64,000 nt of DNA from a virus (IMGVR_UViG_3300021964_009400), one strand, 5' to 3'. Counted from the stretch's first letter, positions 9,545-62,659 are shown. Notes: a model not told the origin generated them from the letters alone. Program-made: numbers and translations.

Positions 9545-10683
9545 TTCATGTAATACCACATCATATTGGAAAAGGTTCATACGCTGCATGGTATGATGTT
9601 ATAGATTTTGAAACAGAAACTCAAGAAGTTAAATTTCATAAGTTTGATAATAGTGTTTCTATTGAAGATAAATACATTTTTGAAGAACAACCACCAAACA
9701 ATGATTATTTTAAATTATTAGAATCACATATACAAGAAATAAAACCAAAACCAAATGATTGGATTGTTTGTGATTTTCAATATTTAAATTACCAAGAACA
9801 ACCTGATAATGAAATAATTAAATTAGCAGAAAAATATAAAGTTAAATTTGTTTTCATAGATGATGATAATTATCAATGTTTTATGGATACTAAATATTTT
9901 ACATTTCACTCTAATAAATTTTATTTAAAGGATTCAACAAAGGTTTTCAACTATTACAGATATAGAATACCACACACAGATTTTTATAAAAATCTTGATA
10001 CTATTCACATTCCATTTTTTGATAACATAAGAGAAAAAAAATTAAATATGTTTGTTGGTGTGGATAAAAAAGAAAGATTTGAAGTATTTAAGCATATACA
10101 TAATATAGGTTTAGATAAGGATTCATATCTTGCATATAGTGCATTTACAAGCAATTATTCAGATGATGAGTTATCTTCGGATTTATTAAAATGGAAAAAA
10201 CAATATATACCAAAAATATTAGATACACCACTTAAAAAAAGCTCTCATGGTGGAGTAAATCCAGACATACCACCATTACCATATTGTATGAATAGTTATG
10301 TTTCTTGTATATTAGAAACACAACTAATGATTGATACTGATAATATAGAAATACACTTAAGTGAAAAAAGTTGGAATCCTTTTGCATCATTTAATATACC
10401 ACTTTATCTATGTGCACATGGAACTCGTAGATATTTAAAAAGACATGGATTTTGGTTGGCATCTGATTTATTTGATACAACTGAAAAAAACTCAAGAAGA
10501 GAAATAATTGAACAATTTAAATCTAATTTAGATATTATAAATAAAATGTCTAAGGAAGAACTACGAAAATATTATACAAATAATTGGAATAAAATCCAAA
10601 ACAATTATAATAAGTTGATGAAACAAAAATTTACATTTAGTAAAAAAAATTATATTCAACCAAAATATAAAACAATTTTATGA
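9541..10683 (+). CDS. Putative glycosyltransferase (GT10-like family, paralogue 1 of 4)
   Basis: C-terminal SCILET..HLSEKSWNPF..HGF motif shared with 30994, 34574 and 38243; 4-nt overlaps with both neighbours. Confidence 0.45.
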   Translation: MIHVIPHHIGKGSYAAWYDVIDFETETQEVKFHKFDNSVSIEDKYIFEEQPPNNDYFKLLESHIQEIKPKPNDWIVCDFQYLNYQEQPDNEIIKLAEKYKVKFVFIDDDNYQCFMDTKYFTFHSNKFYLKDSTKVFNYYRYRIPHTDFYKNLDTIHIPFFDNIREKKLNMFVGVDKKERFEVFKHIHNIGLDKDSYLAYSAFTSNYSDDELSSDLLKWKKQYIPKILDTPLKKSSHGGVNPDIPPLPYCMNSYVSCILETQLMIDTDNIEIHLSEKSWNPFASFNIPLYLCAHGTRRYLKRHGFWLASDLFDTTEKNSRREIIEQFKSNLDIINKMSKEELRKYYTNNWNKIQNNYNKLMKQKFTFSKKNYIQPKYKTIL

Positions 10684-48619: not shown

Positions 48620-50356
48620 ATGGCAGATACTTCATTTTTTGGTAGATTAACAAAACTATTCAGAGCCCAAGCGGTGGTTACCATCGATAAAAAGGGTAGA
48701 AGAAAAGTAGTTGATACTGATGAAAGACAACAAACGAATTTATCATCTTTAAGAGATAGATATACAAAGATTCAGAAATCTTTCTTTGAACAAGCAGGTG
48801 GTGCACAATCAATGGCATACCAACAAGTTCGTAGAGAAGTTTTTCGTGATTACGATGCAATGGATAACGACCCGATATTAGCATCAGCATTAGATATATA
48901 CGCAGATGAATCAACACTAAAAAACGAATTTGGTGATACTCTAGGAATCGTATCAGATAATGAAAAGATTCAAGAAATATTAAGAAACTTATTTTATGAT
49001 ATCCTTAATGTTGAATTCAACTTATGGCCATGGGTAAGAAATATGTGTAAGTATGGAGATTTCTTCTTAGGTTTAGAAATAGCTGAAGGTAAAGGTATTG
49101 TGAATATTACACCTCACTCTGTTTACAATACAGAAAGATTAGAAAGAACAGACCCAACAAATCCAAATTCAGTAAAGTTTAAAATTACTGAGGACCCGAA
49201 TGGTAAAGAAGAATACGAAAACTTTGAAATTGCTCACTTCAGATTGTTAGCAGATACAAACTGGTTACCTTATGGTAAATCTATGATTGAGAATGGTAGA
49301 AGATTGTGGAAACAATTATCTCTAATGGAAGATGCTATGTTAATCCATAGAATCATGAGAGCACCAGAAAAAAGAGTATTCAAAGTGGATATAGGAAATA
49401 TCCCTCCAACAGAGGTTGATAACTATATGCAGAGAATCATCAATAAAATGAAGAAAGTTCCTTTCGTTGATAGAAATACTGGTGATTACAACTTAAAGTA
49501 CAATATGCAAAATCTAACTGAAGATTTTTACTTACCAGTTAGAGGTGGTGATAGTGGTACAAACATTGAAAACCTTGCAGGTTTAGAATATGCAACTATC
49601 GAAGATATTGATTATTTAAAGAACAAATTATTTGCAGCTCTTAAAATTCCAAAAGCATATTTAGGATACGAAGAACAAGTAAATGGTAAAGCAACACTTG
49701 CAGCAGAAGATGTTAGATTTGCAAGAACAATCGAAAGAATTCAAAGAACAGTAATTTCAGAATTAACTAAAATTGCAATTGTACATTTATACTCACAAGG
49801 TATTACAGATTCAGAAATGACAAACTTTGAATTACAATTAGTAAATCCATCATTTATTTACGAACAAGAAAAAATAAACCTTTGGTCAGAAAAAGTTAGA
49901 TTGGCACAAGATGTGATTGGATTGAATATGTTATCTAAAGATTGGGTATATTCCAATATATTTAAAGTTTCTGATAATGAAAAGGATGATGAACAAACTA
50001 AAATTATTGAAGATATCAAAGATAGATATAGATATAGAATGATTGAAGATGAGGGTAATGACCCTGCATTAGAAGATGAAGAACCAGATGATATCGAAGA
50101 ATCTTTAGAAAAATTAAAAGCAGAAATTAAAGATAAAGGTGGTAGACCAAGAGAAGGAAATACATATGGTAAAGATAAGCATCCTTATGGTAGAGACCCA
50201 CTTGGTGATAAAGAAAGAAAATCTGCAAGAAAAAATACAACTTCCGAAGAAAAAGCAATACAATATGTAAGTGGAATTGCTGCAAAAAGAAAGTATTTAC
50301 ATGAAATGAAAGATATGTTAGATGAGGAAAATATCCTCAAAGATACAGAAAATTAA
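48620..50356 (+). CDS. Portal protein (T4 gp20-like)
   Basis: LMEDAMLIHRIMRAPEKRVFKVDIGNIP; EDFYLPVRGG; LFAALKIP. Confidence 0.95.
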   Translation: MADTSFFGRLTKLFRAQAVVTIDKKGRRKVVDTDERQQTNLSSLRDRYTKIQKSFFEQAGGAQSMAYQQVRREVFRDYDAMDNDPILASALDIYADESTLKNEFGDTLGIVSDNEKIQEILRNLFYDILNVEFNLWPWVRNMCKYGDFFLGLEIAEGKGIVNITPHSVYNTERLERTDPTNPNSVKFKITEDPNGKEEYENFEIAHFRLLADTNWLPYGKSMIENGRRLWKQLSLMEDAMLIHRIMRAPEKRVFKVDIGNIPPTEVDNYMQRIINKMKKVPFVDRNTGDYNLKYNMQNLTEDFYLPVRGGDSGTNIENLAGLEYATIEDIDYLKNKLFAALKIPKAYLGYEEQVNGKATLAAEDVRFARTIERIQRTVISELTKIAIVHLYSQGITDSEMTNFELQLVNPSFIYEQEKINLWSEKVRLAQDVIGLNMLSKDWVYSNIFKVSDNEKDDEQTKIIEDIKDRYRYRMIEDEGNDPALEDEEPDDIEESLEKLKAEIKDKGGRPREGNTYGKDKHPYGRDPLGDKERKSARKNTTSEEKAIQYVSGIAAKRKYLHEMKDMLDEENILKDTEN

Positions 50357-50374
50357 TTAAACTTATATAATTTT

Positions 50375-50383
50375 ATATTTATA
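50375..50383 (+). promoter_or_regulatory. Putative late promoter motif ATATTTATA
   Basis: 40 nt upstream of ATG 50424. Confidence 0.5.
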
Positions 50384-50423
50384 ATAGGGAAAATTTACTA
50401 TATCATAATAGGAAAAAATAACG

Positions 50424-51296
50424 ATGAGAAAAATAAAACATTCAAAATTTAAAAATACTGGTTTTCTTTTTGAACTCCTTACAAGGCAAGTTACCCTTGA
50501 AATAATCAATGGTAGTGAAGAAAAAGCTAAAGGAATTATTAAAGAATTCTATGGTAAAGGTACTGAAATGTCCAAAGAATTGAGATTATTCAACCTTTTA
50601 ATAAATGAAAAATATAATACAGAATCAAAAGCTGAAAAGTTTATTGATGCTATTTTAGAAGCCCATACAAAAATAGATTATAAAAAAATTCAACGAGAAA
50701 AATATAATCTTGTAAAAGCTATCAAGGAAAACTTCGAAATTAACAATTTCTTATCTTCCCCGGTAACAAACTACAAAATTTTAGCTTCAATCCATAAGTT
50801 GTTTGAAGGTAAAAAGAATGATATCCTTGATATTAAAGATGTATTTAATTCAAAACTAACTCTTGTAGAGCATATCTCATCAAATTCCCCATCTACATTA
50901 AAAGAAAAAGAAGATAAGTTAGTAGAAGAATACAGAAAACAAGAGAAAGATTTAAGATTATTGACATACAAAATTCTTGTTGAAACTTTTAACAAAAAAT
51001 ATACAACTCTAGATGAATCACAAAAAGGTTTATTAAGAGAATATATTAATAATGTTAATAACACTTCAAAGTTCAACGAGTATTTCGAATCAGAATTAAT
51101 CAAAACTATTACTGAATTACATACAATGTATAAAGGTATGAAGGATAAGATTACAAAAATCAAGTTGAAAGAAACTATTAATGTTTTAAAAAAGCAAAAA
51201 ATTGGTAAAAAGATTACCGATGAACAAGTTTCAGCTTTGATGATGTCTTATGAATTGATTAAGGAGATAAAAAATGTCAATGGAAAAAAATCTTAA
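50424..51296 (+). CDS. Hypothetical head-module protein (helical)
   Basis: 290-aa ORF directly after the portal; no recognised motif. Confidence 0.6.
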   Translation: MRKIKHSKFKNTGFLFELLTRQVTLEIINGSEEKAKGIIKEFYGKGTEMSKELRLFNLLINEKYNTESKAEKFIDAILEAHTKIDYKKIQREKYNLVKAIKENFEINNFLSSPVTNYKILASIHKLFEGKKNDILDIKDVFNSKLTLVEHISSNSPSTLKEKEDKLVEEYRKQEKDLRLLTYKILVETFNKKYTTLDESQKGLLREYINNVNNTSKFNEYFESELIKTITELHTMYKGMKDKITKIKLKETINVLKKQKIGKKITDEQVSALMMSYELIKEIKNVNGKKS

Positions 51297-52206
51297 AGAA
51301 ATCTTAGATGAAATTCTTGATGAAGTTCAAAAAGAATTAGATGAAGCCACTACAACAGGTAATGTAGATGGTTATCAAACTCCTTACGCATTCTCCAAAG
51401 GAAACAAACACAAAAAAAGAAAAAAGAAAATAGCAACACAACTTGGTTATTCAGTTGTGGGTGGTGATATTGATAATATCAATGAAGCAGCAATAACTTA
51501 TGGTATTGAATATAAATCATCTAAAAAAGATAGAAAATTCAAAAAAGCATCTTTAACAAAAACAACACACAATCCTAATATAGATAAAATGATGATAAAG
51601 GCTATTTCTAAAGATGCCAAATCATTAGCAAAACAAGATGGGTGGGTTGATTATAGAATAACCAAAGATGGTGTACCTGTAAAAGAATCAGTAAACGAGG
51701 GAAAATTCAAACCATCACAAGTTCGTTCAGCAATCTCAAGAGTTAAAAAACAACTAATGAGAAAGTGGAAACAAAAAGGTGGATATGAAAACTTTGGACA
51801 AAAAGAACTTTCTCAAATGAAAGATAAGTTTGATTACAATCCATATGGTTCATCAGATGAAAGACAGATTTCAAAGATGTTAGATGGGTTTGATAATTGG
51901 GCTATGAACTATGATGGTAATATGAGAGAAGATATTAACGAAGCTAAAGTAAAGAGACCAGTAAATCGTTGGTTAGAATTAAAAAACGATGAATCAATGC
52001 ATCCTCATAAGAAGATGGCAATGGGTCTAAAAGAATTAAAGTATCAATTAAGAGAAGTTGAGAAGTTTTTCAATTGGTATAATAAAATCAAAACGATTAA
52101 TGAGTTGGATTCTGATAAGTATTGGAAAAGAACAAATAAACATATTTATACTATAAAAGAGAGATTAATCAAAATAGCAAAAACAATACAGGAGATTGAA
52201 AAATGA
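51274..52206 (+). CDS. Putative modular head-internal protein
   Basis: AAGGAG 7 nt upstream; NLKEILDEILDE leader; segments delimited by LDE, INE, ESVNE and DINE. Confidence 0.6.
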   Translation: MSMEKNLKEILDEILDEVQKELDEATTTGNVDGYQTPYAFSKGNKHKKRKKKIATQLGYSVVGGDIDNINEAAITYGIEYKSSKKDRKFKKASLTKTTHNPNIDKMMIKAISKDAKSLAKQDGWVDYRITKDGVPVKESVNEGKFKPSQVRSAISRVKKQLMRKWKQKGGYENFGQKELSQMKDKFDYNPYGSSDERQISKMLDGFDNWAMNYDGNMREDINEAKVKRPVNRWLELKNDESMHPHKKMAMGLKELKYQLREVEKFFNWYNKIKTINELDSDKYWKRTNKHIYTIKERLIKIAKTIQEIEK

Positions 52207-52529
52207 AAATAACAAGAGAACAATTAAAAAATATAGTCAGAGAAACTTTATTAGAAGAATCTGAATACCAAAAGTTCTTTAAAAAGGCATTAGAAAAGGC
52301 TGGTAAATCATTACCTTCAATGTCCGATGAAGAAAAGAAAGCATTCTTTAACAAAATCCAAAAAACTTGGAAAGGTAGAGGAAAGAAAAATGAAAGATTT
52401 GGCAGAGGTGCAGTAGGACCTACTTTTGGTGGACAAGAAATAGATGAAAAATTAAATTCATCTGAAATTGGTAAAGGTGATAATAAGAAACCATCTAAAG
52501 ATGCTTCTGATTCATCTAATATAAAGTAA
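52203..52529 (+). CDS. Putative prohead core/internal protein
   Basis: MKITREQLKNIVRETLLEE leader; GGAG RBS. Confidence 0.55.
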   Translation: MKITREQLKNIVRETLLEESEYQKFFKKALEKAGKSLPSMSDEEKKAFFNKIQKTWKGRGKKNERFGRGAVGPTFGGQEIDEKLNSSEIGKGDNKKPSKDASDSSNIK

Positions 52530-52533
52530 AAAA

Positions 52534-52710
52534 ATGACCAAAAGAGAATTGTATGATATCATCAATGAAGAAATCGTTAATGTTAAAAAAGGAACTATTA
52601 ACGAAGAACTCACCGAATCTGATAAGGATATAATCCGAAAAATTATCAGACAAGAAGTATCGGCAATCTTTTTTGATTTATTTAAGAAAAGAAAAACTTG
52701 GGGAGCATAA
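52534..52710 (+). CDS. 58-aa putative prohead core protein (not in ORF track)
   Basis: MTKRELYDIINEEIVNVKKGTINEELTESDKDIIRKIIRQEVSAIFFDLFKKRKTWGA*; TAATG-coupled to the protease. Confidence 0.6.
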   Translation: MTKRELYDIINEEIVNVKKGTINEELTESDKDIIRKIIRQEVSAIFFDLFKKRKTWGA

Positions 52711-53303
52711 TGAACAATTTATTAATAGAAACAAGATTATTCGAAGGAAGGGTAAACGAAGATGATAGTGGAAGAACTATCGTTAAGGGTATTCTACAAA
52801 GAGCTGGTGCAGAAAATCAGAATGGTAGAATATATCCTAAACCTATCCTTATGAGAGAGGCAAAGAAATACGAAACACTTATTAAAGAAAGAAGAGCATT
52901 AGGTGAATTAGACCATCCTGATTCTTCTGTAATCAACTTAAAGAATGTATCTCACAATGTAAGAGAAATTCATTGGGATGGTGATGATTTAGTAGGAACA
53001 GTTGAGATTTTACCAACTCCAAGTGGTAACATCTTAAAAGAACTTCTACAAGCAGGTATTCTATTAGGTATATCATCAAGAGGTATGGGTTCAGTAGAAC
53101 CTTTATCAGGTGGTAAAGTTCAAGTAGGTGAAGATTTTGAATTGATTGGTTGGGATTTTGTTTCTAACCCATCTACTCATGGAGCATTTATGGTTCCTAT
53201 GAACGAATCTGTGAACAAACAACTTCAATCACAAACAGCAGTTTGTAATGAATGGTGTAAGGCACAAGATATGATGAGAGAAATTATAACAGAATTAAAT
53301 TAA
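52710..53303 (+). CDS. Prohead core protease (T4 gp21-like)
   Basis: AENQNGRIYP, ALGELDHP, LGISSRGMGS, WDFVSNPST; start ATG 52710, not TTG 52698. Confidence 0.95.
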   Translation: MNNLLIETRLFEGRVNEDDSGRTIVKGILQRAGAENQNGRIYPKPILMREAKKYETLIKERRALGELDHPDSSVINLKNVSHNVREIHWDGDDLVGTVEILPTPSGNILKELLQAGILLGISSRGMGSVEPLSGGKVQVGEDFELIGWDFVSNPSTHGAFMVPMNESVNKQLQSQTAVCNEWCKAQDMMREIITELN

Positions 53304-53307
53304 GGTT

Positions 53308-53493
53308 ATGGGATTTAATGTACAGGACTTTATGTCCAAAAATAAGTTTAAACTTGGAACAGTTGAAAGAGAAGTTGGTTCTAAAACTGCAAAGAGTTAT
53401 AACGATATAAGAAAAACTAATTATGAAGTTAAGTTAACCGAAGATGGTAAACTTGATTTATACACACATAAAAAGGAGAAAAAAGAATTATGA
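53308..53493 (+). CDS. Small hypothetical protein (61 aa)
   Basis: Tightly packed ORF after the protease. Confidence 0.55.
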   Translation: MGFNVQDFMSKNKFKLGTVEREVGSKTAKSYNDIRKTNYEVKLTEDGKLDLYTHKKEKKEL

Positions 53494-54974
53494 TTAAATT
53501 GGGTGGACTTATCGATTTAAAACCTTTACAAGAAGAAAAGGCTTTTACTGCTACAAGTAAAGAAACTGGTAATGTTTCTGTATTTAAAACAAAAGCAGCT
53601 AGAGATGCTGCAATCAAAGCAGGTACTCATGAAAAAAGAAAAACCGATAAAGATACCGCAGTTGATGTTCCTGGTGGAGAAGATAAACCTAAAGTAAACA
53701 TCTTTAAAAGAGATAGTGATAGAGATTCAAAGGAACGCCTAAAGAAAATGAAGGCACAACAAAAATCTGCTGAACCTAAAAAAGAAAGACCTGATGAAGC
53801 TCCAAAGAGACCAGTAGATATGGATGATGAGGAACATGGAGTAGAAGATTTCAGAGAATTTGGTAATTTGTATTCTGATGATATGACACCTGAACAAAAA
53901 GATGAATATGATAGTCTTACTAGTGATTTAGAAATGGCAGATGCTGATTTAATAGATGCACGAGATTTATCTGACCAAGATTTTGAAGAGGCGGCATCTG
54001 AATATAATGAAATCGAATCTAAACTTTACGATTTAATCGATAGTATTTACGAACCTAAATCAGAACCTAAAAATGATAAAGAAGAACCTAAAGCAGAACC
54101 ATCTAAACCTAAATTAGAATCAGACCCTCAGGCTGAAAAAGTTGCTGATAAGATTTCCAAAAAATATGGCATCACTCCTCAAAAAATGGGTGAAGAAGAT
54201 TATAAGGTTGCAATCGGTAGAGCTGTTTATTCGGCATTAACTAACTCTAACTTCCATACTGAAGCAAGAGAGTTAATTGCAGTATTAGAAGATAAACCAG
54301 AACTTGCAAAAAGACCGGAGTATCCTTCAATATCAGATGATGATTACGATACGAAAATGGATGCAATCAGAAAAAAATATGCTTCTACATATAGTGAAAG
54401 AGATGATTATTCATCGGCATTGGGTAGAGAAACTTCAGATGCAGCTGAATGGGATGGAGTTAAATCAGTAGGAACTCTAACTAAACAACTACGAGATAAT
54501 GGTATGAGTGATTTTGCTGATAAAATCGAATCTATCTTTGATAAAAAAGAATATATGAAGAAAGAAGGTAGAATTAGTATTTCAAATCTTGTTAAAGAAA
54601 ATATAATCAACGAAGGAACTCGTTCACAAGTTGGTATCATTGATAGAAGTGGTAAGATTGCATCAGCATATGTTCACTACGATGGTTATCCATCAAATAT
54701 GAAACCAGGTCTTAAAAAACATATGAAGAATGAAAAAGATGTTCTTCAACTTATTAAAAAAGGTGGTGCAAGAGGAATCTATGATGATAAAGATATTGAA
54801 TACTACCAGAAGGGTGGAAAACCAATTAAAGGTAATTCAAAAGATTTTGGTAAATATGTAGATACTGCCGATAGAAATGGTAGTGCTGAATATGTTTACC
54901 TTTACAATATGAAAGATAAGAAGTGGTATTATGCTGATGTATATGGTGATAAAAAATTAAAAAAATTATTTTAA
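53490..54974 (+). CDS. Putative modular head-internal protein
   Basis: Leader MIKLGGLIDLKPLQE; FTAT..RDAAIKAGTHE module; acidic middle; after IINE a GTRSQVG..YVHYDGYP..YVYLY domain. Confidence 0.6.
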   Translation: MIKLGGLIDLKPLQEEKAFTATSKETGNVSVFKTKAARDAAIKAGTHEKRKTDKDTAVDVPGGEDKPKVNIFKRDSDRDSKERLKKMKAQQKSAEPKKERPDEAPKRPVDMDDEEHGVEDFREFGNLYSDDMTPEQKDEYDSLTSDLEMADADLIDARDLSDQDFEEAASEYNEIESKLYDLIDSIYEPKSEPKNDKEEPKAEPSKPKLESDPQAEKVADKISKKYGITPQKMGEEDYKVAIGRAVYSALTNSNFHTEARELIAVLEDKPELAKRPEYPSISDDDYDTKMDAIRKKYASTYSERDDYSSALGRETSDAAEWDGVKSVGTLTKQLRDNGMSDFADKIESIFDKKEYMKKEGRISISNLVKENIINEGTRSQVGIIDRSGKIASAYVHYDGYPSNMKPGLKKHMKNEKDVLQLIKKGGARGIYDDKDIEYYQKGGKPIKGNSKDFGKYVDTADRNGSAEYVYLYNMKDKKWYYADVYGDKKLKKLF

Positions 54975-54975
54975 G

Positions 54976-55185
54976 ATGAAACTAAAAGATTTATTACCAG
55001 AAGGATTTGTAGTAATGTACAAAGTGAGAAAAGACCTTAAGAATGTAAACATAGGTCCAGCTCAAGCATGGTATAAAGATAAATCTGATGCAGAAAAATT
55101 TTTAAAATCGGTTGAGAAAGATGGTGGTAAAGGAATGATTGTAAAGGATAAAGCACCAAAATCAAAAATCGATAGAGGAATATAA
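54976..55185 (+). CDS. Putative head-internal protein (69 aa)
   Basis: Leader MKLKDLLPE. Confidence 0.6.
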   Translation: MKLKDLLPEGFVVMYKVRKDLKNVNIGPAQAWYKDKSDAEKFLKSVEKDGGKGMIVKDKAPKSKIDRGI

Positions 55186-55476
55186 AAGGAGAGAACAATG
55201 AAACTAAAAGATATACTTAACGAAAGCAAAAATAATATTAGTGAGGCAAAAAAAGTTGACCCAAGAATAGCTGGTGATATTTTTGCAAGATATCTTATAG
55301 GAGATAGAACTGATGCAATAAGACAATTAGATAAATTAAAAAAAATTGCAAGTTTTGGAGTAATGGAGACGCCAGGAACAAAAGAATATAACCAACAATT
55401 CGCAGAACTCTCAGATAAAATTACAAAAGTAATTAGAGGAGTAATGTAATATTAAAGGAGAGAACAATGAAACTAA
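55185..55476 (+). repeat. 23-nt direct repeat covering RBS and first codons of adjacent genes
   Basis: AAAGGAGAGAACAATGAAACTAA at 55185-55207 and 55454-55476. Confidence 0.85.
55198..55449 (+). CDS. Putative head-internal protein (83 aa)
   Basis: Leader MKLKDILNE..NISE; AAGGAG RBS. Confidence 0.6.
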   Translation: MKLKDILNESKNNISEAKKVDPRIAGDIFARYLIGDRTDAIRQLDKLKKIASFGVMETPGTKEYNQQFAELSDKITKVIRGVM

Positions 55477-56225
55477 CCCAACTATTAAAAGAAAATGAAG
55501 AAAGACCTCTATCTAATGAGGTTAAAAGACATTTTCTTGAAATTGTTTCAACTTACAACAAGTATCAAGAATCAATGGATAGAAAATCAGATATTACTCA
55601 AGTAGCAGAAACCCTTGGTGGTATTACTGAAGCTGCTAGAACACTTGCAATCAAAGAAGCTGGTGATTGGTTCGATAAACATACTGTAAAGAGAAACATG
55701 AGTGAATTGGATAAGTTGGGTAAACAATTCGATAAAGTTGCTCTTGAGGCTCGTGCACTTGACCAAAGAATGGCAGGATTATACGAGGATATGGGACACA
55801 TCCTATCAAGATACTACAAGTTCGGTGAGATTACTGAAGATGAAATGAAAAACAGATTAGGTATCAACGAATCTAAAAAAGATTGTGGATGTGGATGTGG
55901 TGGAACAACAGTAGGTGGATGCAACGAATCAGTAAACAAAGAAACAATTACAGAACAATCTGTTGTAGTTCACAATAGAACACAAAATGGAAACATAGTT
56001 ACAGTATTAAAAGAATCTGATTTAAACGAAGAAGAAATGAAACTTTATGAGTTTGGTAAAAAAGTAACTCGGTTAATGGAAAAAAGTTGCCCAAATGACC
56101 CTGGTAAATGGGCAGCATCTAAAGCAGCAGCAAAAAAGAAGTTTGATGTATATCCTTCTGCATACGCTAATGGATGGGCTGCAAAAAACTACAAGGGTAA
56201 AGGTGGAACTTGGAAAAACTGTTAA
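55467..56225 (+). CDS. Putative modular head-internal protein
   Basis: Leader MKLTQLLKE; INE then CGCGCGG; ESVN; LME then basic module YPSAYANGW..YKGKGGTW. Confidence 0.6.
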   Translation: MKLTQLLKENEERPLSNEVKRHFLEIVSTYNKYQESMDRKSDITQVAETLGGITEAARTLAIKEAGDWFDKHTVKRNMSELDKLGKQFDKVALEARALDQRMAGLYEDMGHILSRYYKFGEITEDEMKNRLGINESKKDCGCGCGGTTVGGCNESVNKETITEQSVVVHNRTQNGNIVTVLKESDLNEEEMKLYEFGKKVTRLMEKSCPNDPGKWAASKAAAKKKFDVYPSAYANGWAAKNYKGKGGTWKNC

Positions 56226-56234
56226 GGAGAAATT

Positions 56235-57482
56235 ATGGAATTCGTATCTTATATAGAAACAAGAAAAGGTAAAAAATTACTTAAGGTATTTAAATCTAAA
56301 AGAGCAGTAGATATGTTCTTAAAGAAAAATACCGATAAAATTTTATCAAAGAGCGGTATTGAATCAGTTGGTTCAATGTCTAAAAGAGATTGGGATTCTA
56401 AAGAAGCCAAATACGCAGTAAACGAAGTTGGTAAGGGTAGTAATTGGGCAGAAAAATATGTAAATGATACTAATTTATATAAAAAATTAAATTGGTATAT
56501 GAAGATGGGCAAAGGTGTTGAGAAAAAAATCAAAGGTAAAGAATTTGTAATAATGTCCGATGGCAGTGCTCTTATATGGAATGCCAAAACATCTGATTGG
56601 GAATTGTATAAACCAAAAAGAATAGATAAAAAAACAGGTAAACCAATTTATGAATCAGTAAACGAAGGTAAAAAAAGATACTACCAACAAGATAGAGTTG
56701 GTTCAGCAAAATACACAATCTCTTACCACGATGGTAAAAAGAAACATAAAGATGGTAGTGATTTCTTTGATATCCAAACTTTCAGAAACAAAAAAGATTT
56801 AGCAAAATTTGTAAACACTTTACACAAAGGTGGATATGTTTATGGATTTAATGAATCAGTAAACGAAACAAAATATAAAGTAGGTGATACTCTTGCAGAA
56901 GGATTAATAAATCCAAAATCAGGACACGAATACTTTCAACTTACTAAAAACACACCTGTAAAATATATTGCAGGACATTCTGGTTTAGGACTTACAACTC
57001 CTGGAGTTTTATTGAAAAACATACCTGGATTTATTGATGGTAAAAAGGGTGCGTATTTAATTGATTATCATGGTGCACTTTTTTATGTAGATTTAAAAAA
57101 GAAAGTTGCCGTTAGATTAGGATATGATTTAAGTAAACAACCTAAATTAAGGTATAAAACTAATTTTATCAGAGTTCCTCAGGCACCAGAATTTTCAGAT
57201 TGGAAAAGATATTTAAAAGAATCAGAAGATGGTGTACCACAAGGATACAATCCAATGGTAGAATCTAAAACGAAAGAAAGTAAAGTAATTCAAAAAATAC
57301 ACACATACACAAAAACTGAAAAAAAGTTTTATGACGAACTTGCAAAACATGAAGTAAGAATCGGACAAAACGATTATGCTAAATTTATTATTAACGCATT
57401 AAGAGGATTTGGTATCAATCCAAGAGAATTCAAAAGAATACCTGATGCCGAAGAAAAACTCTATCAAATAGTATCAAAATAA
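56235..57482 (+). CDS. Putative polyprotein of small modules
   Basis: Five or six segments separated by AVNE, ESVNE, FNESVNE, LKESE and VES; AAGGAG RBS. Confidence 0.6.
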   Translation: MEFVSYIETRKGKKLLKVFKSKRAVDMFLKKNTDKILSKSGIESVGSMSKRDWDSKEAKYAVNEVGKGSNWAEKYVNDTNLYKKLNWYMKMGKGVEKKIKGKEFVIMSDGSALIWNAKTSDWELYKPKRIDKKTGKPIYESVNEGKKRYYQQDRVGSAKYTISYHDGKKKHKDGSDFFDIQTFRNKKDLAKFVNTLHKGGYVYGFNESVNETKYKVGDTLAEGLINPKSGHEYFQLTKNTPVKYIAGHSGLGLTTPGVLLKNIPGFIDGKKGAYLIDYHGALFYVDLKKKVAVRLGYDLSKQPKLRYKTNFIRVPQAPEFSDWKRYLKESEDGVPQGYNPMVESKTKESKVIQKIHTYTKTEKKFYDELAKHEVRIGQNDYAKFIINALRGFGINPREFKRIPDAEEKLYQIVSK

Positions 57483-57493
57483 AGGAAAAAATT

Positions 57494-58885
57494 ATGAGAC
57501 TCAGAGACTTATTACCAGAACAAGAAACATTCACTGCTACTAACAAAAAGAGTGGAGAAACTGCGGTATTCAAATCTAAAGATTCAAGAGATGCAGCAAT
57601 TAAAGCAGGAACTCACGAACCTATTGAAAAGGGAGGTGATGAAAAATCTGATAAACAGAAATCACCTGGTAAAGTAAGTGGGAAAGATATGTTTAAACAT
57701 GCTTCTGATATCAAAAAAGATAAAGAAGAAACTCCAAAAGATAATCAAAAAGATTGGGATGGGAAAACACTTCCAAAAACTCCAGCTTTTAGTGGAGAAG
57801 AAAAGGTCAATTATTTGAATGATATAACTACTAGCATGGATATGTACAAAAGTGGTAAAGTGAATAGTAGTTGGGAAGCAAGAGATAAATATTTTGATGA
57901 ATTGTATAATAATACTATTTGGTCGTTGGAGGAGTTCATATATCAAACAGGATATAAACAAGGTGATTTTGACATAGATTCACTTCAAAAAAAAGTTGAT
58001 GAATTATATAAAGATGTAATGCGTGGTGCAGAACATACTGATGAAACAATGGGTAGAAAAATCTCACCTTCTCAGAACCAAGAAATTCAAAATGAAATAG
58101 GTAGAATAGCTAAAGAAATTTCTCAAAAAATTGACAACCCAACAGAACATACTCGAAAAGAGTGGGATAGAAGTATGCCAAAAAACTCTGATATGTTTGG
58201 TGGGGATGATAATCAAATAGATTTAGACCAAAAAGAGTTCAACTCAGGAAAAATTTGGTATCGTCAATCTGCTGAAGATATTAATAAAGAAGAAGGTTAT
58301 GATGGTTATATAGGAACTACTCAGAGGGTATATAATCAAATGAGAGATTGGCTTCGTTCCAATGCAAAACTCCATAGAGAAGAAGTATCCGATATGTTGC
58401 AAGGCCTTAGAAACAAAAGTTTGAAAATGCAAAAAGACGCAAAAAGATTTGATAAACTTTCAACCTTTCATAAGAGAGAAGTTGAAGATGAAATAGGTCA
58501 TTTAGCTAATTTAATTGGAAAAAAGTACAAACAACCAAAACCAAAACCTGAACCAAAACCTGAACCAAAATCAGAACCAAAATCAGAGCCAAAATCAGAA
58601 CCAAGGCCTGAACCAAGACCACAACCAAGGACTGAACCATCACCAGAAGAAAAGGCTAAAAAAGAATTAAGTGGTGCAACTGCTTTAGGATTTAGTGATA
58701 TAGAAAAATTAGGTTCTAAAGCTGCTAGTGATATTGATATGGCAGTTAGAAGAGACCCTAATTATACTCGTGGTAGTAGACCTGGTGATGATGATAGATT
58801 AAGAGCTAAAAAAGCAAAAGAATTAGGATATATAGATGAAGTTAAATCAATGAAACTAATAGATTTATTACCTAATGTAAAATAA
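57494..58885 (+). CDS. Putative modular head-internal protein
   Basis: Leader MRLRDLLPE; FTAT..RDAAIKAGTHE module; PEPK repeats; C-terminal IDE-VKSMKLIDLLP. Confidence 0.6.
   Translation: MRLRDLLPEQETFTATNKKSGETAVFKSKDSRDAAIKAGTHEPIEKGGDEKSDKQKSPGKVSGKDMFKHASDIKKDKEETPKDNQKDWDGKTLPKTPAFSGEEKVNYLNDITTSMDMYKSGKVNSSWEARDKYFDELYNNTIWSLEEFIYQTGYKQGDFDIDSLQKKVDELYKDVMRGAEHTDETMGRKISPSQNQEIQNEIGRIAKEISQKIDNPTEHTRKEWDRSMPKNSDMFGGDDNQIDLDQKEFNSGKIWYRQSAEDINKEEGYDGYIGTTQRVYNQMRDWLRSNAKLHREEVSDMLQGLRNKSLKMQKDAKRFDKLSTFHKREVEDEIGHLANLIGKKYKQPKPKPEPKPEPKSEPKSEPKSEPRPEPRPQPRTEPSPEEKAKKELSGATALGFSDIEKLGSKAASDIDMAVRRDPNYTRGSRPGDDDRLRAKKAKELGYIDEVKSMKLIDLLPNVK
58535..58639 (+). repeat. 12-nt tandem coding repeat (PEPK/SEPK/PEPR)
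   Basis: ccaaaacctgaa / ccaaaatcagaa units in frame. Confidence 0.85.
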
Positions 58886-59253
58886 TGCAACTCCAAGAAC
58901 TATGTAAGGAAATTATAGAAGAAAACAGATGTATCCATTGTGGAAACATTGTTAACGAAGATTTGCGTAATTGGTTCAAATCAAAGTGGGTTAACATTGG
59001 TAAGAAAGATAAAAGTGGAAAACACCCACCATGTGGAACAAGTGGTGATAAGAGTGGATATGCTAAATGTGTTCCAGCTTCAAAAGCTAAATCTATGAGT
59101 AAAAAAGAAAAAGAATCTGCAACTCGTAGAAAGAGGACAGCACAAAACAAGGCAAATCGTGGTGGTAAGGCATCGAGAGGTCAAGGAAAGAAACCTATAA
59201 ATGTTTCTACCCATACTGGTGGAAAAAAGAGTGGGACCGGAAAAGGTTCATAA
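58885..59253 (+). CDS. Putative head-internal basic protein
   Basis: Leader MQLQELCKEIIEE; CIHC; VNE then DLRNWFKSKWVNIG..CG..KCVP basic domain. Confidence 0.55.
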   Translation: MQLQELCKEIIEENRCIHCGNIVNEDLRNWFKSKWVNIGKKDKSGKHPPCGTSGDKSGYAKCVPASKAKSMSKKEKESATRRKRTAQNKANRGGKASRGQGKKPINVSTHTGGKKSGTGKGS

Positions 59254-59256
59254 TAT

Positions 59257-59265
59257 ATACTTATA
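59257..59265 (+). promoter_or_regulatory. Variant late promoter motif ATACTTATA
   Basis: One mismatch to the motif, 29 nt upstream of the bS21 ATG. Confidence 0.4.
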
Positions 59266-59294
59266 TAAAACAAGTTACACTTAAATAAAAGAGA

Positions 59295-59618
59295 ATGAGT
59301 AAACACCCAAAATTAGTATCTGTACAAGTTAAGCACAAAGATATTAATAAAGCACTAAAAATTTTAAAAAGAAGAATCAACGATTCAGGTCATCTACAAG
59401 AGTTAAGAGATAGAAAGTATTTTGAAAAACCATCTGTTGTTAAAAGAAAAGCAAATCAACAAGCTAGAAGAGAACAAGAAAGAGAAACTATTTTAGAAAA
59501 AATAGAAAATGGTAATACAACAGTCAGATTAAAAACTCGTAAAAAAAGAAAAATAAAATCAAAAAATAATGATTCTAAAAAGAAAGAAGATAAAAATTCT
59601 TCAAAATTAATTTCATAA
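59295..59618 (+). CDS. rpsU: Phage-encoded ribosomal protein bS21 with basic C-terminal extension
   Basis: INKALKILKRR...G.LQELRDRKYFEKPSVVKR..Q.ARR is the bS21 pattern; 107 aa. Confidence 0.85.
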   Translation: MSKHPKLVSVQVKHKDINKALKILKRRINDSGHLQELRDRKYFEKPSVVKRKANQQARREQERETILEKIENGNTTVRLKTRKKRKIKSKNNDSKKKEDKNSSKLIS

Positions 59619-59644
59619 AAAACATTGTTTTAAATATATATTCT

Positions 59645-59791
59645 ATATTTATTAGTAATAATCCACAGGTGTGGATTCATTTTATGGTTTATGAATACCC
59701 ACGAGTTCTTATGTGAGGTGACCAAACCTAAAATTAATTCTTATTGAAAATCCCTTAATATTTTCACGATAACAAACGAAAGGTTTAAAAA
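59645..59791 (+). promoter_or_regulatory. Variant late promoter (ATATTTATT) and ~140-nt structured 5' leader of the scaffold-capsid operon
   Basis: Longest non-coding gap in the head module; hairpins AATCCAC-aggt-GTGGATT (59660-59677) and TGAAAAT-8-ATTTTCA (59745-59766). Confidence 0.45.
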
Positions 59792-61018
59792 ATGGCAAAT
59801 TCAAATTTATTGAAAGAAGCTATTGCTGATGCTAAAGCTGTTAGAGAAACTGCTATTGCTAATGCTAAAATCGCTCTTGAAGAAGCTTTCACTCCAAGAC
59901 TACAATCTATCCTTTCTCAAAAACTTCAACAAGAAATTGAAGGAGAAGATGAGGAAGAAGAATCAGTAGAAGAGGGAACTTATAACGCTGACGGTGAGGA
60001 AGAAATTACTGCTGAAGGTGAAGATAAGGAAGACGAGGAAGTTAATGAAGAGTACGATAAAGATGATGCTCCTGATGCAGGTGCTTCTGATATCGGTGAT
60101 GGAGACAACAAGCAACCAGCAGATGATGCTAATAGTTCATCAGATGTAGCTCAAGGAAACCCTGATACGGATGTTGAATCTAGTGAAGTAGGTTCTGAGG
60201 ATGAAAATTCTGAGAAAGCTGCTGAAATTAGTGAAAACGAAGAATCAGAAGAAGAAGATTCAGTAGAAGAAAACTACATGGAAGATTCTCACGAAGAAGA
60301 ATCAGACGAAGAAGAACTTGATTTGGAATCAATCATTAAGGAACTAGAGGCTGAACTTTCTGGAGAAGAAGGTGCAGACCACGAAGAAGAACTTGATGCT
60401 GAGGAAAAAGAAGAAGTTGAAGATATCGCTGATGACGCTGTCGGTTCTCATGAAGATGAGAAACACGATGAAGTGGAAGAAGAAATGTATTCTGAAGAAG
60501 AATCTGAAGAAGAAGATTTAGATGATGAAATTGATTTAGAAGAAATCCTAAGAGAAATGGGATATGGTTCTGATGAAGTTTCTGAAGGTGAAGATTCTGA
60601 AGAAGAAAAAGAAGAGGTTGAAGAAAACAACGAATTAGAAGAAACTAAAGCAGAACTAAGTGATGCAATTTCTACTATTAAAGAGTTGAAGTCTACAATC
60701 AATGAAGTAAATCTATTAAACGCTAAATTACTTTACACTAACAAATTGTTCAGAGCTTATGAACTAAACAACGACCAAAAACACAAAGTTGTTGAAACAT
60801 TAGACAGAACTAAAAATGTTAGAGAAGTAAAATTAGTATTCTCAACATTAGCTGAGAGTTTTAAAATAGGTGGAACTTCAAAAAAACAAAAACAAGCTAA
60901 AATCAACGAATCATTCGCATCTAAACCAGTTGCAAGTACTGCTCCTAAAAAGGAAGTAATTACTGAATCAACTAACACGATGGCTGATAGATTTAAGAAA
61001 TTAGCAAATATTAACTAA
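59792..61018 (+). CDS. Prohead core scaffolding protein (T4 gp22-like)
   Basis: Extremely acidic centre, coiled-coil ends; position directly upstream of the major capsid gene. Confidence 0.8.
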   Translation: MANSNLLKEAIADAKAVRETAIANAKIALEEAFTPRLQSILSQKLQQEIEGEDEEEESVEEGTYNADGEEEITAEGEDKEDEEVNEEYDKDDAPDAGASDIGDGDNKQPADDANSSSDVAQGNPDTDVESSEVGSEDENSEKAAEISENEESEEEDSVEENYMEDSHEEESDEEELDLESIIKELEAELSGEEGADHEEELDAEEKEEVEDIADDAVGSHEDEKHDEVEEEMYSEEESEEEDLDDEIDLEEILREMGYGSDEVSEGEDSEEEKEEVEENNELEETKAELSDAISTIKELKSTINEVNLLNAKLLYTNKLFRAYELNNDQKHKVVETLDRTKNVREVKLVFSTLAESFKIGGTSKKQKQAKINESFASKPVASTAPKKEVITESTNTMADRFKKLANIN

Positions 61019-61048
61019 TTATTAACAAAATTTTAAGGAGAGATAAAA

Positions 61049-62659
61049 ATGGCAAATTTTGATTTATCTAAACTTATGGAAGGAAAGAACCCACAACAAG
61101 TTATGCTTGCTGAGACAAGAGAACTTAAGTCAAAGTGGGATAGAACTGGACTTCTAGAAGGTTTAAACGAGAGAGAGCAATCTCAAATTTCTGTACTTCT
61201 TGAGAACCAAGCAAAACAATTACTTGATGAGGCAACTCAAACAGGTACTTCAGCTGGTTCAGAAGAATGGAGTGGTGTTGCTCTTCCTTTGGTAAGAAGG
61301 ATTTTTGGTGAAATAGCATCAAAAGAATTCGTTAGCGTTCAGCCAATGAACTTACCATCTGGTCTAATATTCTATTTAGACTTTAAATATGGAACTGCTC
61401 AACCAGGAAATCCTGGATTTAGCGGAAAATCACTTTTCGGTGGAACAGGTTCGGACTTAGGTTCAACTGACTCTGCAGTAAATGGTCTTTATGGAGAAGG
61501 AAGATTCGGATATTCAGTAAATGATGTATCTGATTCAGTTGCTTCAGGAGACATAACACTAGCATCAGCTTCATGGGCAGATGTACAATATGATGCATCA
61601 TTATCATCATCAGTTGCTGATGGTTCATTAGCAAAATTTACTTTCGCTCATAACGAACTAGTAAGACCTGATTTAGATGCAGTAAGAAGTTTTTACATTT
61701 CTTCATCAGATTTCGCTACTGCTGATGCATTTTACCCAGCACATTCAAAAGTATCTGGTGCTAACATTATAGTATTCGCTAAAACAAGTGGATTACCACT
61801 TGCTGATAGCTTAACTGTAAAGCATTCACAACAACCAGTTGCTGAAAACAGAGGTGACTTTGAAGATGGAAACGCTGGTGGTGTTTCTTCAGTAGGTGAA
61901 GATTTAGGTATTCCAGAAGTAGACCTAGAGTTAAAGTCTGAAGCAATCGTTGCTAAGACTAGAAAACTAAAGGCTGTATGGACACCTGAATTGGCTCAAG
62001 ACCTTAATGCTTACCACTCAATCGATGCTGAAGCTGAATTAACTTCTATGTTATCTGAGTACATCTCATTAGAGATTGACCTAGAAATCTTAGATATGTT
62101 AAAATCAAACGCTTTAACATCTGAATACTGGTCAGTAACTTTAGGTGAAGAGTATGATTCAAACAATACATCATGGGTAGCTGGAAGTAATTCTGCTGCT
62201 TACACTAAAAACTCTTGGTTCCAAACACTTGGTGCTAAGATTAATAAAGTAAGTAACAAGATTCACCAGTTAACTTTAAGAGGTGGAGCAAACTTTATTG
62301 TTGCTTCTCCAGATGTTTGTACGATTTTAGAATCAATCCCAGGATTTACAGTTTCTGCTGATAAAGATGCTTCATCTTTCGCAGCTGGTGTAACTACTGT
62401 TGGTTCTTTATCTAACAGATATACTGTGTACAAAAACCCTTATATGACTTCTAACGAAATCTTATTAGGATTTAAAGGTTCAAACTTCCTAGAAACAGGA
62501 GCAGTTTATGCACCTTATGTACCATTAATCATGACACCTCTTGTATATGACCCAACTAACTTTACACCAAGAAGAGGTGTAATGACTAGATACGCTAAGA
62601 AAATGGTAAGACCAGAATTCTATGGTAAAATCTATGTTAAAGATTTAGCTAACCTATAA
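61049..62659 (+). CDS. Major capsid protein (T4 gp23-like)
   Basis: PLVRRIFG..VSVQPMNLPSGLIFYL; KTRKLKAVWTPELAQDLNAYHSIDAEAEL; YAPYVPL; F.PRRGVMTRY. Confidence 0.97.
   Translation: MANFDLSKLMEGKNPQQVMLAETRELKSKWDRTGLLEGLNEREQSQISVLLENQAKQLLDEATQTGTSAGSEEWSGVALPLVRRIFGEIASKEFVSVQPMNLPSGLIFYLDFKYGTAQPGNPGFSGKSLFGGTGSDLGSTDSAVNGLYGEGRFGYSVNDVSDSVASGDITLASASWADVQYDASLSSSVADGSLAKFTFAHNELVRPDLDAVRSFYISSSDFATADAFYPAHSKVSGANIIVFAKTSGLPLADSLTVKHSQQPVAENRGDFEDGNAGGVSSVGEDLGIPEVDLELKSEAIVAKTRKLKAVWTPELAQDLNAYHSIDAEAELTSMLSEYISLEIDLEILDMLKSNALTSEYWSVTLGEEYDSNNTSWVAGSNSAAYTKNSWFQTLGAKINKVSNKIHQLTLRGGANFIVASPDVCTILESIPGFTVSADKDASSFAAGVTTVGSLSNRYTVYKNPYMTSNEILLGFKGSNFLETGAVYAPYVPLIMTPLVYDPTNFTPRRGVMTRYAKKMVRPEFYGKIYVKDLANL

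Follow-up and report, generated by a model that had tools for sequence, protein, structure and literature searches.

The stretch of viral DNA analysed here, IMGVR_UViG_3300021964_009400 (64,000 nucleotides (nt), hereafter the window), carries a T4-type head module in which genes on both flanks of a gp21-type prohead protease are divided internally by copies of a short in-frame linker that reads Glu-Ser-Val-Asn-Glu (ESVNE). The Peptidase_S77 protease, the Portal_T4 portal protein and a gp23-type major capsid protein define a T4-type prohead assembly with a gp21-family protease (Table 1). According to tblastn, the major capsid protein is 51–57% identical to those of Flavobacterium phage immuto, Microcystis phage Mel-JY01 and an uncultured 484-kb phage, immuto and Mel-JY01 being the best named relatives (51–54%). 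Four linker copies, all reading ESVN(E/K), lie in + strand open reading frames (ORFs) and are distributed over three genes, namely A, E and F, the last of which contains two. No recombinase or endonuclease was found at the locus when the window proteins were scanned against Pfam and PHROG.

Table 1. Features of the linker-bearing locus and of the surrounding head module, in window coordinates.
Feature	Position	Strand	Evidence or remark
T4 gp20-type portal protein	48620..50356	+	Pfam Portal_T4 E=2.7e-69; PHROG portal
Gene A, 310 aa: N-terminal head-module part (residues 1-72), then three cassettes	51274..52206	+	
Mobile cassette AAITY...GVPVK-ESVNE of gene A	51487..51699	+	within gene F homologue in contig L004
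ESVNE linker copy 1, GAATCAGTAAACGAG	51685..51699	+	exact 14-mer match, ORF frame
T4 gp21-type prohead serine protease	52710..53303	+	Pfam Peptidase_S77 E=3e-26; PHROG head maturation protease E=7e-49
ESVN within protease, natural control: same peptide, synonymous drift	53205..53216	+	16 DNA variants in 76 copies
Gene C, 69 aa, leader MKLKDLLPE, whole-gene cassette	54976..55185	+	
23-nt RBS+leader repeat, copy 1	55185..55207	+	exact match
Gene D, 83 aa, leader MKLKDILNE, whole-gene cassette	55198..55449	+	
23-nt RBS+leader repeat, copy 2	55454..55476	+	exact match; 41 homology ends at 55440-55467
Gene E, 252 aa: leader MKLTQLLKE, N-terminal module, ESVNK, C-terminal module	55467..56225	+	
Gene F, 415 aa: F1-ESVNE-F2-ESVNE-F3	56235..57482	+	
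ESVNE linker copy 2, GAATCAGTAAACGAA	56652..56666	+	exact match; 30 homology ends at 56637-56680
F2 module, 62 aa + linker, three-strand-plus-helix mini-domain	56667..56852	+	AF2 alone pLDDT 89
ESVNE linker copy 3, GAATCAGTAAACGAA	56853..56867	+	exact match; 25 homology ends at 56867-56913; joint 56867→57234
Gene G, 463 aa, leader MRLRDLLPE	57494..58885	+	family D7
Gene H, 122 aa, IVNE site 58945-58959	58885..59253	+	16 homology ends at 58953-58954
Acidic scaffold (gp22-like), downstream end of variable region	59792..61018	+	composition, position, homology to same-place phage immuto protein
gp23-type major capsid protein	61049..62659	+	tblastn
aa, amino acids; RBS, ribosome-binding site; AF2, AlphaFold2; pLDDT, predicted local distance difference test.

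A first-pass annotation made from the window alone had reported one identical 14-mer at three places, with a 12-nt match at 55926, in three different genes, and exact matching together with the ORF assignments bears this out. The 14-mer, GAATCAGTAAACGA, occurs exactly at 51685, 56652 and 56853, which are its only exact copies in the full 84-kb viral record, while the copy at 55926, GAATCAGTAAACAA, agrees in 13 of 14 positions, with one mismatch and 12 contiguous matches. Allowing up to two mismatches, eight matches were obtained against 0.65 expected, a number that none of 100 shuffles attained. Given the codon usage of the window, 4.7% of ESVN peptides should be spelled GAA-TCA-GTA-AAC, AAC being the minority Asn codon (28%), and the chance of one common spelling in four ESVN copies is about 5e-4. 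A fifth ESVN peptide, absent from that first list, is found at 53205 inside the C-terminus of the prohead protease and is written in other codons (GAATCTGTGAAC). The segments separated by the linker, formerly put at 60–120 aa, measure 67–204 aa in the window, and the internal modules of relatives have a median of 77 aa (range 53–269), so that the earlier figure was roughly right.

A search of viral contigs with the protease returned 504 relatives, of which the best 80 (85–100% protease identity) were taken with their flanks; all comparison data are metagenomic contigs. From these 80 contigs and the window, 160 inter-module ESVNx linkers were collected as junctions, leaving out the protease's own copy. 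The invariance of the linker is a property of its DNA: GAATCAGTAAACGAA makes up 134 of the 160 linkers, against about 4% expected from codon usage, and 84 of 102 when one linker is counted per junction type. The conserved block comprises exactly 15 nt and the following G (82%), and its flanks are devoid of information, which makes it a short conserved in-frame motif with a core of 15–16 nt between variable segments. In the same genomes, the ESVN at the C-terminus of the protease occurs in 16 spellings among 76 copies (TCT 57, TCA 15; GTG 33, GTT 30, GTA 13; AAC 56, AAT 20), with a synonymous diversity at Ser, Val and Asn of 0.40, 0.63 and 0.39, compared with values near 0–0.2 in the linkers. 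Since the same peptide drifts in the protease and the codon expectation is so low, neither peptide constraint nor the preferred codons of the genome, which had been raised at the outset as a possible explanation, account for the identity of the linkers. Judging from the sequences, the linker copies would either be continually re-derived by recombination or be selected for the DNA spelling itself.

The orientation of the motif is equally uniform. Within the 80 loci, 231 ESVN motifs lie on + strands versus 11 on reverse strands, and in 894 kb of related DNA every one of the 132 exact 15-mers points forward and is read as ESVNE; the reverse strand has no copy. These direct in-frame copies differ from the inverted or recombinase-specific sites with an adjacent recombinase that characterize shufflon- and integron-like systems. 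The sharp edges of the conserved block, its length of 15–16 nt and its single orientation might also suggest that it is recognized by an enzyme of its own, for example a site-specific recombinase or an endonuclease of the homing or nicking kind, or that it acts at the RNA level; homing endonucleases are frequent in T4-like phages. Nevertheless, this explanation is very unlikely, since the scans of the locus yielded no such enzyme, a weak PHROG 'integrase' match was confined to one of 89 modules, the motif is never found outside the ESVNE frame or on the other strand, and related lineages carry ESINE or ESLNE, which better fits a drifting combination of peptide and homology.

The junctions formed by the linker are combinatorial. 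The 160 junctions comprise 62 clusters of upstream ends (15 residues) and 63 clusters of downstream starts, joined in 102 combinations; for instance, the upstream end …KQGYKLTN has six partners in ten occurrences, and the downstream start AKIKRPVN… has nine upstream partners. When 89 linker-bearing ORFs were split at the linker, 249 modules were obtained, which fall into 92 families (clustered with 85% mutual coverage required) and 55 architectures. A few module families are always N-terminal, while internal and C-terminal cassettes vary, and the number of linkers per ORF ranges from 1 to 4 in the loci and up to 7 in database homologues, their order being free. Thus, the fixed module order that would have spoken against cassette shuffling is not seen in relatives, and neither is the fixed number and order of motifs that builds a single structural domain in gp38-type proteins. 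Such promiscuity could in principle be an artefact of chimeric metagenome assembly at the repeat, given the origin of all comparison data, or of codon bias, an explanation that is hardly credible here. Junction types observed in at least two contigs amount to 33, and those in at least three to 13; the promiscuity stays when the analysis is limited to the 33, which excludes chimeric assembly as its cause. Moreover, one joint (51480→51937, see below) is found in three metagenome runs, the shared core of 15–16 nt presumably lies below the usual assembler k-mers, and codon bias predicts about 4% where 84% is observed.

Breakpoints of homology fall on the linker as well. A blastn comparison of window positions 50000–61100 with the loci gave 921 informative alignment ends, which pile up at the ESVNE copies, at x-(I/V)-N-E sites (DNINE 51472, EDINE 51928, IINE 54600, AVNE 56412 and IVNE 58945) and at leader-bearing gene starts; these other sites, of the form Phi-N-E with a hydrophobic (Phi) residue, are likewise module boundaries. 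In gene A, whose cassettes are joined at DNINE (51472–51486), ESVNE and EDINE (51928–51942), breakpoints with relatives cluster at 51474–96, 51682–85 and 51927–48. For pairs that share the upstream module only, the per-codon DNA identity is 0.83–0.96 before the linker, 0.96–1.0 within it and 0.23–0.46 after it, with a mirror-image step profile for pairs that share the downstream module only, and 4984 pairs of junction types with neither flank in common are still 94–99% identical over the 15 nt. Overall, identity is 0.9 or more on the shared side, 0.94–1.0 inside the 15-mer and about 0.3, the background level, beyond it. Step profiles, base-level junctions and the clustering of the ends of high-scoring segment pairs coincide in this respect, and the breakpoints map to the repeat, as the first-pass annotation had anticipated, and do so at single-codon resolution.

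Individual genomes document the exchange of cassettes. Positions 9845–10069 of contig L004 are 98.7% identical to window positions 51481–51705, a gene A cassette, which in that contig is placed between homologues of F1 and F2 (91–92%); gene A of L004 is devoid of the cassette, with DNINE joined straight to AKVKR, and all three L004 junctions are seamless and in frame. In gene E, the sequence ESVNK (55926–55940) is the linker with a one-base change, and the homologous place in L004 exhibits ESVNE and a different downstream module. In contig L013 (9656–9685), ESVNE and ESINE follow each other directly, as though the cassette that once separated two joints had been lost. The F3 segment of gene F holds the peptide KESEDG (AAAGAATCAGAAGATGGT, 57216–57233), in which the first 7 nt of the linker are kept. 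This place, where relatives have a full ESVNE and then another module, is a homology breakpoint, and the peptide has the look of a linker that decayed or was rejoined imprecisely.

Some of these exchanges are recent. Certain modules in different contexts are 96–99.5% identical between contigs whose proteases are 82–88% identical, which indicates that cassettes were recently transferred across diverged genomes; the average module, though, diverges more quickly than the protease. The window stretch is present in metagenome runs from estuary, marine and salt-marsh samples, and Logan contigs from four such runs were compared with the window, some of these runs being possible sources of IMG/VR contigs and hence only partially independent. 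The joint 51480→51937, which removes the two middle gene A cassettes, occurs in three runs, and the joint 56867→57234 connects a linker with the decayed linker KESEDG. Of the "recent recombination or duplication" initially suspected, recombination is retained, whereas duplication is not, since the flanking modules are unrelated.

A second repeat operates at the level of whole genes. The 23-nt RBS+leader repeat, AAAGGAGAGAACAATGAAACTAA, is found exactly at 55185 and 55454. Leaders of the MKLKDLLPE type, candidate counterparts of the T4 capsid targeting sequence (CTS), start the genes at 54976, 55198, 55467 and 57494 (C, D, E and G, see Table 1), and gene A has LKE at residues 7–9. Genes C and D are absent from L004, with breakpoints at 54975/55452, and a homologue of gene C is located at another position in contig L052. 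In contigs of public runs, the joints 54972→55186 and 55182→55453, the latter in run X5, where gene D is gone, correspond to the excision of genes C and D precisely between RBS+leader repeats. Together with L004, these joints support the earlier proposal that this repeat moves whole genes in the way the linker moves modules.

The modules are small and autonomous. For residues 1–72 of gene A, phage immuto has a homologue of 73 aa that stands alone and occupies the same place (45% identity, E=2e-11); this phage is a cultured relative that has no expansion between protease and scaffold, no cassettes and no repeated linker. Accordingly, a conserved small head-module protein gained an extension of presumed cargo in the window clade, and the feature is clade-specific. 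The median isoelectric point (pI) of the modules is 9.6 and 90% of the families exceed 8.5, so that in size and charge the modules match the small basic mature products of T4 internal proteins. In Pfam and PHROG searches, the matches of 89 module representatives were limited to DUF5872, a Stealth_CR2 below threshold and three PHROGs that are unnamed or weak, while Pfam searches with single window modules gave nothing above threshold, and no PHROG or Pfam internal-protein family was detected in the window genes and the 89 representatives that would indicate homology to T4 IPI, IPII, IPIII or Alt. The C-terminal module of gene E (56090–56222) has a weak match to DUF5872 (…YPSAYANGWAAK…).

The F2 module illustrates this autonomy. 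In an AF2 model of gene F (predicted template modelling score 0.27), residues 1–58, 145–205 and 350–415 form compact confident parts and the linkers (residues 140–144 and 207–211) lie in stretches with pLDDT below 50. F2 is marked by a conserved G..K.Y.ISYHDGKKKHKDGSDFFDI and a terminal KGGY, and its relatives, 676 among 1.84 billion cluster representatives, occupy positions from 2–66 to 722–788 in proteins of 63–1101 aa, including stand-alone proteins of 63–105 aa. F2 is followed by ESVNE (78), ESINE (15) or ESLNE (4), and the residue preceding it is nearly always Glu, even with a different linker. A Foldseek search of the PDB with the F2 model gave nothing at E≤1e-3, and an atlas shape search offered, as leads only, a WGR-like 62-aa family (TM score 0.63) and an integrase N-terminal DNA-binding domain (0.55); from the model, F2 may be a small nucleic-acid-binding unit. 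In a global protein set, gene F has 821 homologues of 246–708 aa, mostly covering only 17–68%, and in the best 120 of them ESVNE outnumbers every other pentapeptide (212 occurrences, up to 7 per protein), with ESINE (32) and ESLNE (16) as its variants. Example homologues are clean strings of 52–157-aa units with the linker at the end of each unit. No match to gene F was obtained by tblastn against 50,697 phage records. Some longer homologues (P0013, P0037, P0064, P0069-P0077) have Pfam PF11450 beside shared modules, and Zeta_toxin is found in 38% of the members of an atlas cluster with F2. These neighbours indicate that enzyme-sized domains also ride on the chains.

The T4 protease gp21 cuts after Glu at (L/I)-x-E, and the module boundaries of the window end in (V/I/L/M)-N-E. 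The protease ORF has a listed TTG start at 52698, although the ATG at 52710 (MNNLLIE...), which agrees with the start in phage immuto, is the probable one. Its N-terminal region bears LIE and VNE, and its C-terminal region bears MNE↓SVNK (53193–53219), 31 residues from the C-terminus; by analogy with T4 gp21 and SPN3US gp245, these are candidate self-processing sites. Because the boundary motifs, the sites in the protease itself and the leaders ending in L-x-E coincide, the scissile bond would be placed after the second Glu of ESVNE. In T4, gp21 removes 10-residue targeting leaders, with processing determinants at positions 8 and 10, and is itself C-terminally processed (PMC9026906). For the gp21-related proteases of phiKZ and SPN3US, the cleavage point is behind the Glu of S/A-x-E, and the SPN3US enzyme also processes itself at the C-terminus (PMC5694885, PMC9026906).

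An uncleaved flexible linker, with chains that act as intact multidomain proteins subject to ordinary domain shuffling, is quite improbable. The AF2 model indicates flexibility at the linker and nothing further, and cleavage is deduced; nonetheless, the motif fits the Phi-x-Glu specificity of the family to which the adjacent protease belongs, and the residue ahead of a module is almost always Glu even where the linker otherwise differs. Moreover, the same modules exist as stand-alone proteins (63–105 aa), free module order is unexpected for cooperating domains, and the protease has similar sites where T4 gp21 and SPN3US gp245 self-process.

The interpretation that we favour, with a probability of roughly two in three, is that the linker is a DNA joint for module exchange and at the same time the presumed protease site of cargo chains. 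According to this proposal, the genes that flank the protease would encode 'beads-on-a-string' proteins. Each would start with a conserved part, either a small head-module protein or a leader of the T4-CTS-like form MKLxDLLxE. Behind it would come the beads, at least one and up to several basic mini-proteins of ~55–140 aa that are unrelated to one another and fold on their own, joined by E-S-V-N-E or, less often, x-(I/V/L/M)-N-E. As DNA, the linker would be a fixed in-frame joint of 15–16 nt, GAATCAGTAAACGAA(G), between any two copies of which, ectopically or between genomes, recombination could take place by short-homology recombination, annealing or template switching, the identity of the 15-mer itself probably being the substrate. 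An exchange at the joint would move, delete, duplicate or replace a module while the frame is kept and the linker regenerated, and the 23-nt RBS+leader repeat would do the same job for whole small genes. As protein, the linker would most likely present V-N-E↓ to the prohead protease, so that the chain, carried into the prohead by its N-terminal part, might be cut to small proteins that are packaged with the DNA and delivered to the host, as are the internal proteins of T4. Since each bead would be released, its neighbours would be immaterial and almost any permutation viable.

Several observations weigh against this interpretation. The junction counts are phylogenetically non-independent, and the rare linker variants (TCG, AAT) are all transitions, for which recurrent mutation and spread are not separable. 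DNINE, EDINE, IINE and AVNE act as breakpoints with little DNA identity, so that exact identity is not strictly required. Moreover, 15–16 nt is short for classical T4-type homologous recombination, and selection on in-frame products could therefore contribute to the sharpness of the breakpoints. On the protein side, cleavage at V-N-E, packaging and injection are deduced from motif, position and predicted flexibility; gene F exhibits no Phi-x-E leader within its first 40 residues, which bears on how it would be targeted; and, with nearly all modules devoid of functional annotation, the term 'effector' is an analogy.

The low-identity boundaries, among which IVNE is also found, and the shortness of the core would equally suit an explanation in which selection is the only filter: illegitimate recombination would occur anywhere, in-frame joins at domain boundaries would survive, and cassettes would bring their own linker, the peptide being constrained and the DNA identity having no role. 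This appears unlikely, since peptide constraint alone leaves the codons free, as the protease copy illustrates, and linkers between wholly unrelated flanks are 94–99% identical. Partial or scarred linkers are absent among the 160 except for one tandem ESVNE-ESINE and one decayed KESEDG, and hitch-hiking leaves unexplained how one spelling persists over 102 unrelated contexts when protease DNA differs by up to 18% among the genomes concerned.

A more specific form of the favoured interpretation, for which the odds seem about even, considers the ESVNE joint of 15–16 nt as a standardised 'plug' whose DNA identity is kept as an in-frame recombination site. The protease site would double as the crossover, and a clade of abundant T4-like phages from marine and estuarine waters would continually re-deal at least about 100 orphan, capsid-delivered mini-proteins, probably devoted to counter-defence or host take-over.

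The genes next to the linker-bearing ones exhibit further features. The last 11 codons of gene G (58850–58882) read, in frame and directly ahead of the stop, as a leader-like MKLIDLLPNVK. Its DNA matches the gene C leader with 85% identity and is also conserved in L013, and the remnant has the appearance of a gene start left behind when the gene itself was lost or displaced. A paralogous N-terminal segment, FTAT(S/N)K..G..(S/A)VFK(T/S)K..RDAAIKAGTHE, is common to genes B and G right after their leaders (53526–53633 and 57529–57619), and both genes contain (E/K)P(K/S) repeat tracts (54051–54099 and 58509–58671, with a 12-nt period). Gene H contains Cys-rich motifs of a kind typically met in small phage proteins that are widespread, and a small, very basic ORF is located at 59295–59618, between the linker-gene region and the scaffold.

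Among known systems, the internal proteins of T4 with their CTS (PMC3012670, PMC9026906) are similar in several respects, including the T4-type head module with a gp21-family protease. The leaders of the window, as candidate targeting signals, are short, N-terminal and end in L-x-E (MKLKDLLPE), the CTS of T4 having 10 residues; the products are small and basic (median 77 aa in the window, 76 aa for IPI*); and the content is highly variable and orphan, with only the (in the window presumed) targeting or processing signal conserved. T-even internal proteins are indeed described in PMC3012670 as a diverse set with the targeting sequence alone in common. Unlike these proteins, the window genes string several unrelated cargo units per ORF with internal sites, and the signal that separates these units is invariant in its DNA and is a demonstrated exchange breakpoint. 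Furthermore, the window genes flank the protease inside the head module and have no sequence homology to the T4 proteins, and their processing and packaging are presumed. The arrangement would work like the T4 internal-protein/CTS system by analogy, without being homologous to it.

Adhesins offer another parallel. For the glycine-rich motifs of T-even gp38 and the motifs of gp37, PMC3157838 (citing Tetart et al. 1996, 1998) describes recombination between conserved motifs that separate hypervariable segments, and, as in the window, short conserved in-frame motifs alternate with variable segments and exchange in or near them gives chimeras. In the adhesins, the motifs build the core of a single structural domain, the variable segments being loops within one fold of fixed order and number, whereas the units of the window are whole unrelated mini-proteins, free in number and order, and the motif would serve as a protease site as well. 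PeSLs, the mobile promoter/stem-loop cassettes behind modular gene shuffling in the hyperplastic regions of T4-type phages (PMC2839356, PMC4122927), are also short repeats that flank optional genes and at which insertions, deletions and replacements break, as happens with the 23-nt repeat and genes C and D. However, PeSLs are intergenic and consist of an early promoter and a terminator stem-loop, whereas the window repeat covers an RBS together with the opening codons of a putative targeting leader, and the ESVNE joint lies inside genes and is translated. Lastly, for the processed ejection and inner-body proteins of the phiKZ gp175 and SPN3US gp245 systems, a gp21-related protease cuts many head-internal proteins after Glu in a three-residue motif, as would be the case in the window. 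Multiple sites per precursor, C-terminal auto-processing of the protease and paralogue numbers that vary between phages would be further points of similarity with these phiKZ-like giants; unlike in the window, their sites remove propeptides from paralogous proteins, and neither a DNA-frozen linker nor cassette permutation is described for them. In the published literature no description of the ESVNE linker was found, a full-text search for 'ESVNE' being without relevant result, and two features were not found described, namely several unrelated cargo units per ORF and a DNA-frozen inter-unit signal that is the exchange point.

The internal proteins of T4 are the textbook example of anti-defence cargo delivered by the capsid, but they are encoded by single genes in which only the leader is conserved, whereas the window apparently encodes permutable polyproteins with a universal joint. 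The linker is, moreover, a rare clean natural case in which selection or molecular drive on synonymous sites is directly readable, since the same peptide drifts in the neighbouring protease. If the proposed interpretation is true, the joint would explain how the set of injected proteins can change fast without broken reading frames or impaired processing. Splitting ORFs at the linker would provide a sequence handle for harvesting hundreds of autonomous orphan mini-proteins from metagenomes for screens, and the arrangement would provide a natural blueprint for filling T4-type capsids with several foreign proteins. Finally, if the linker is indeed kept as a standardised plug, this clade of T4-like phages would possess a phage counterpart of exon shuffling.

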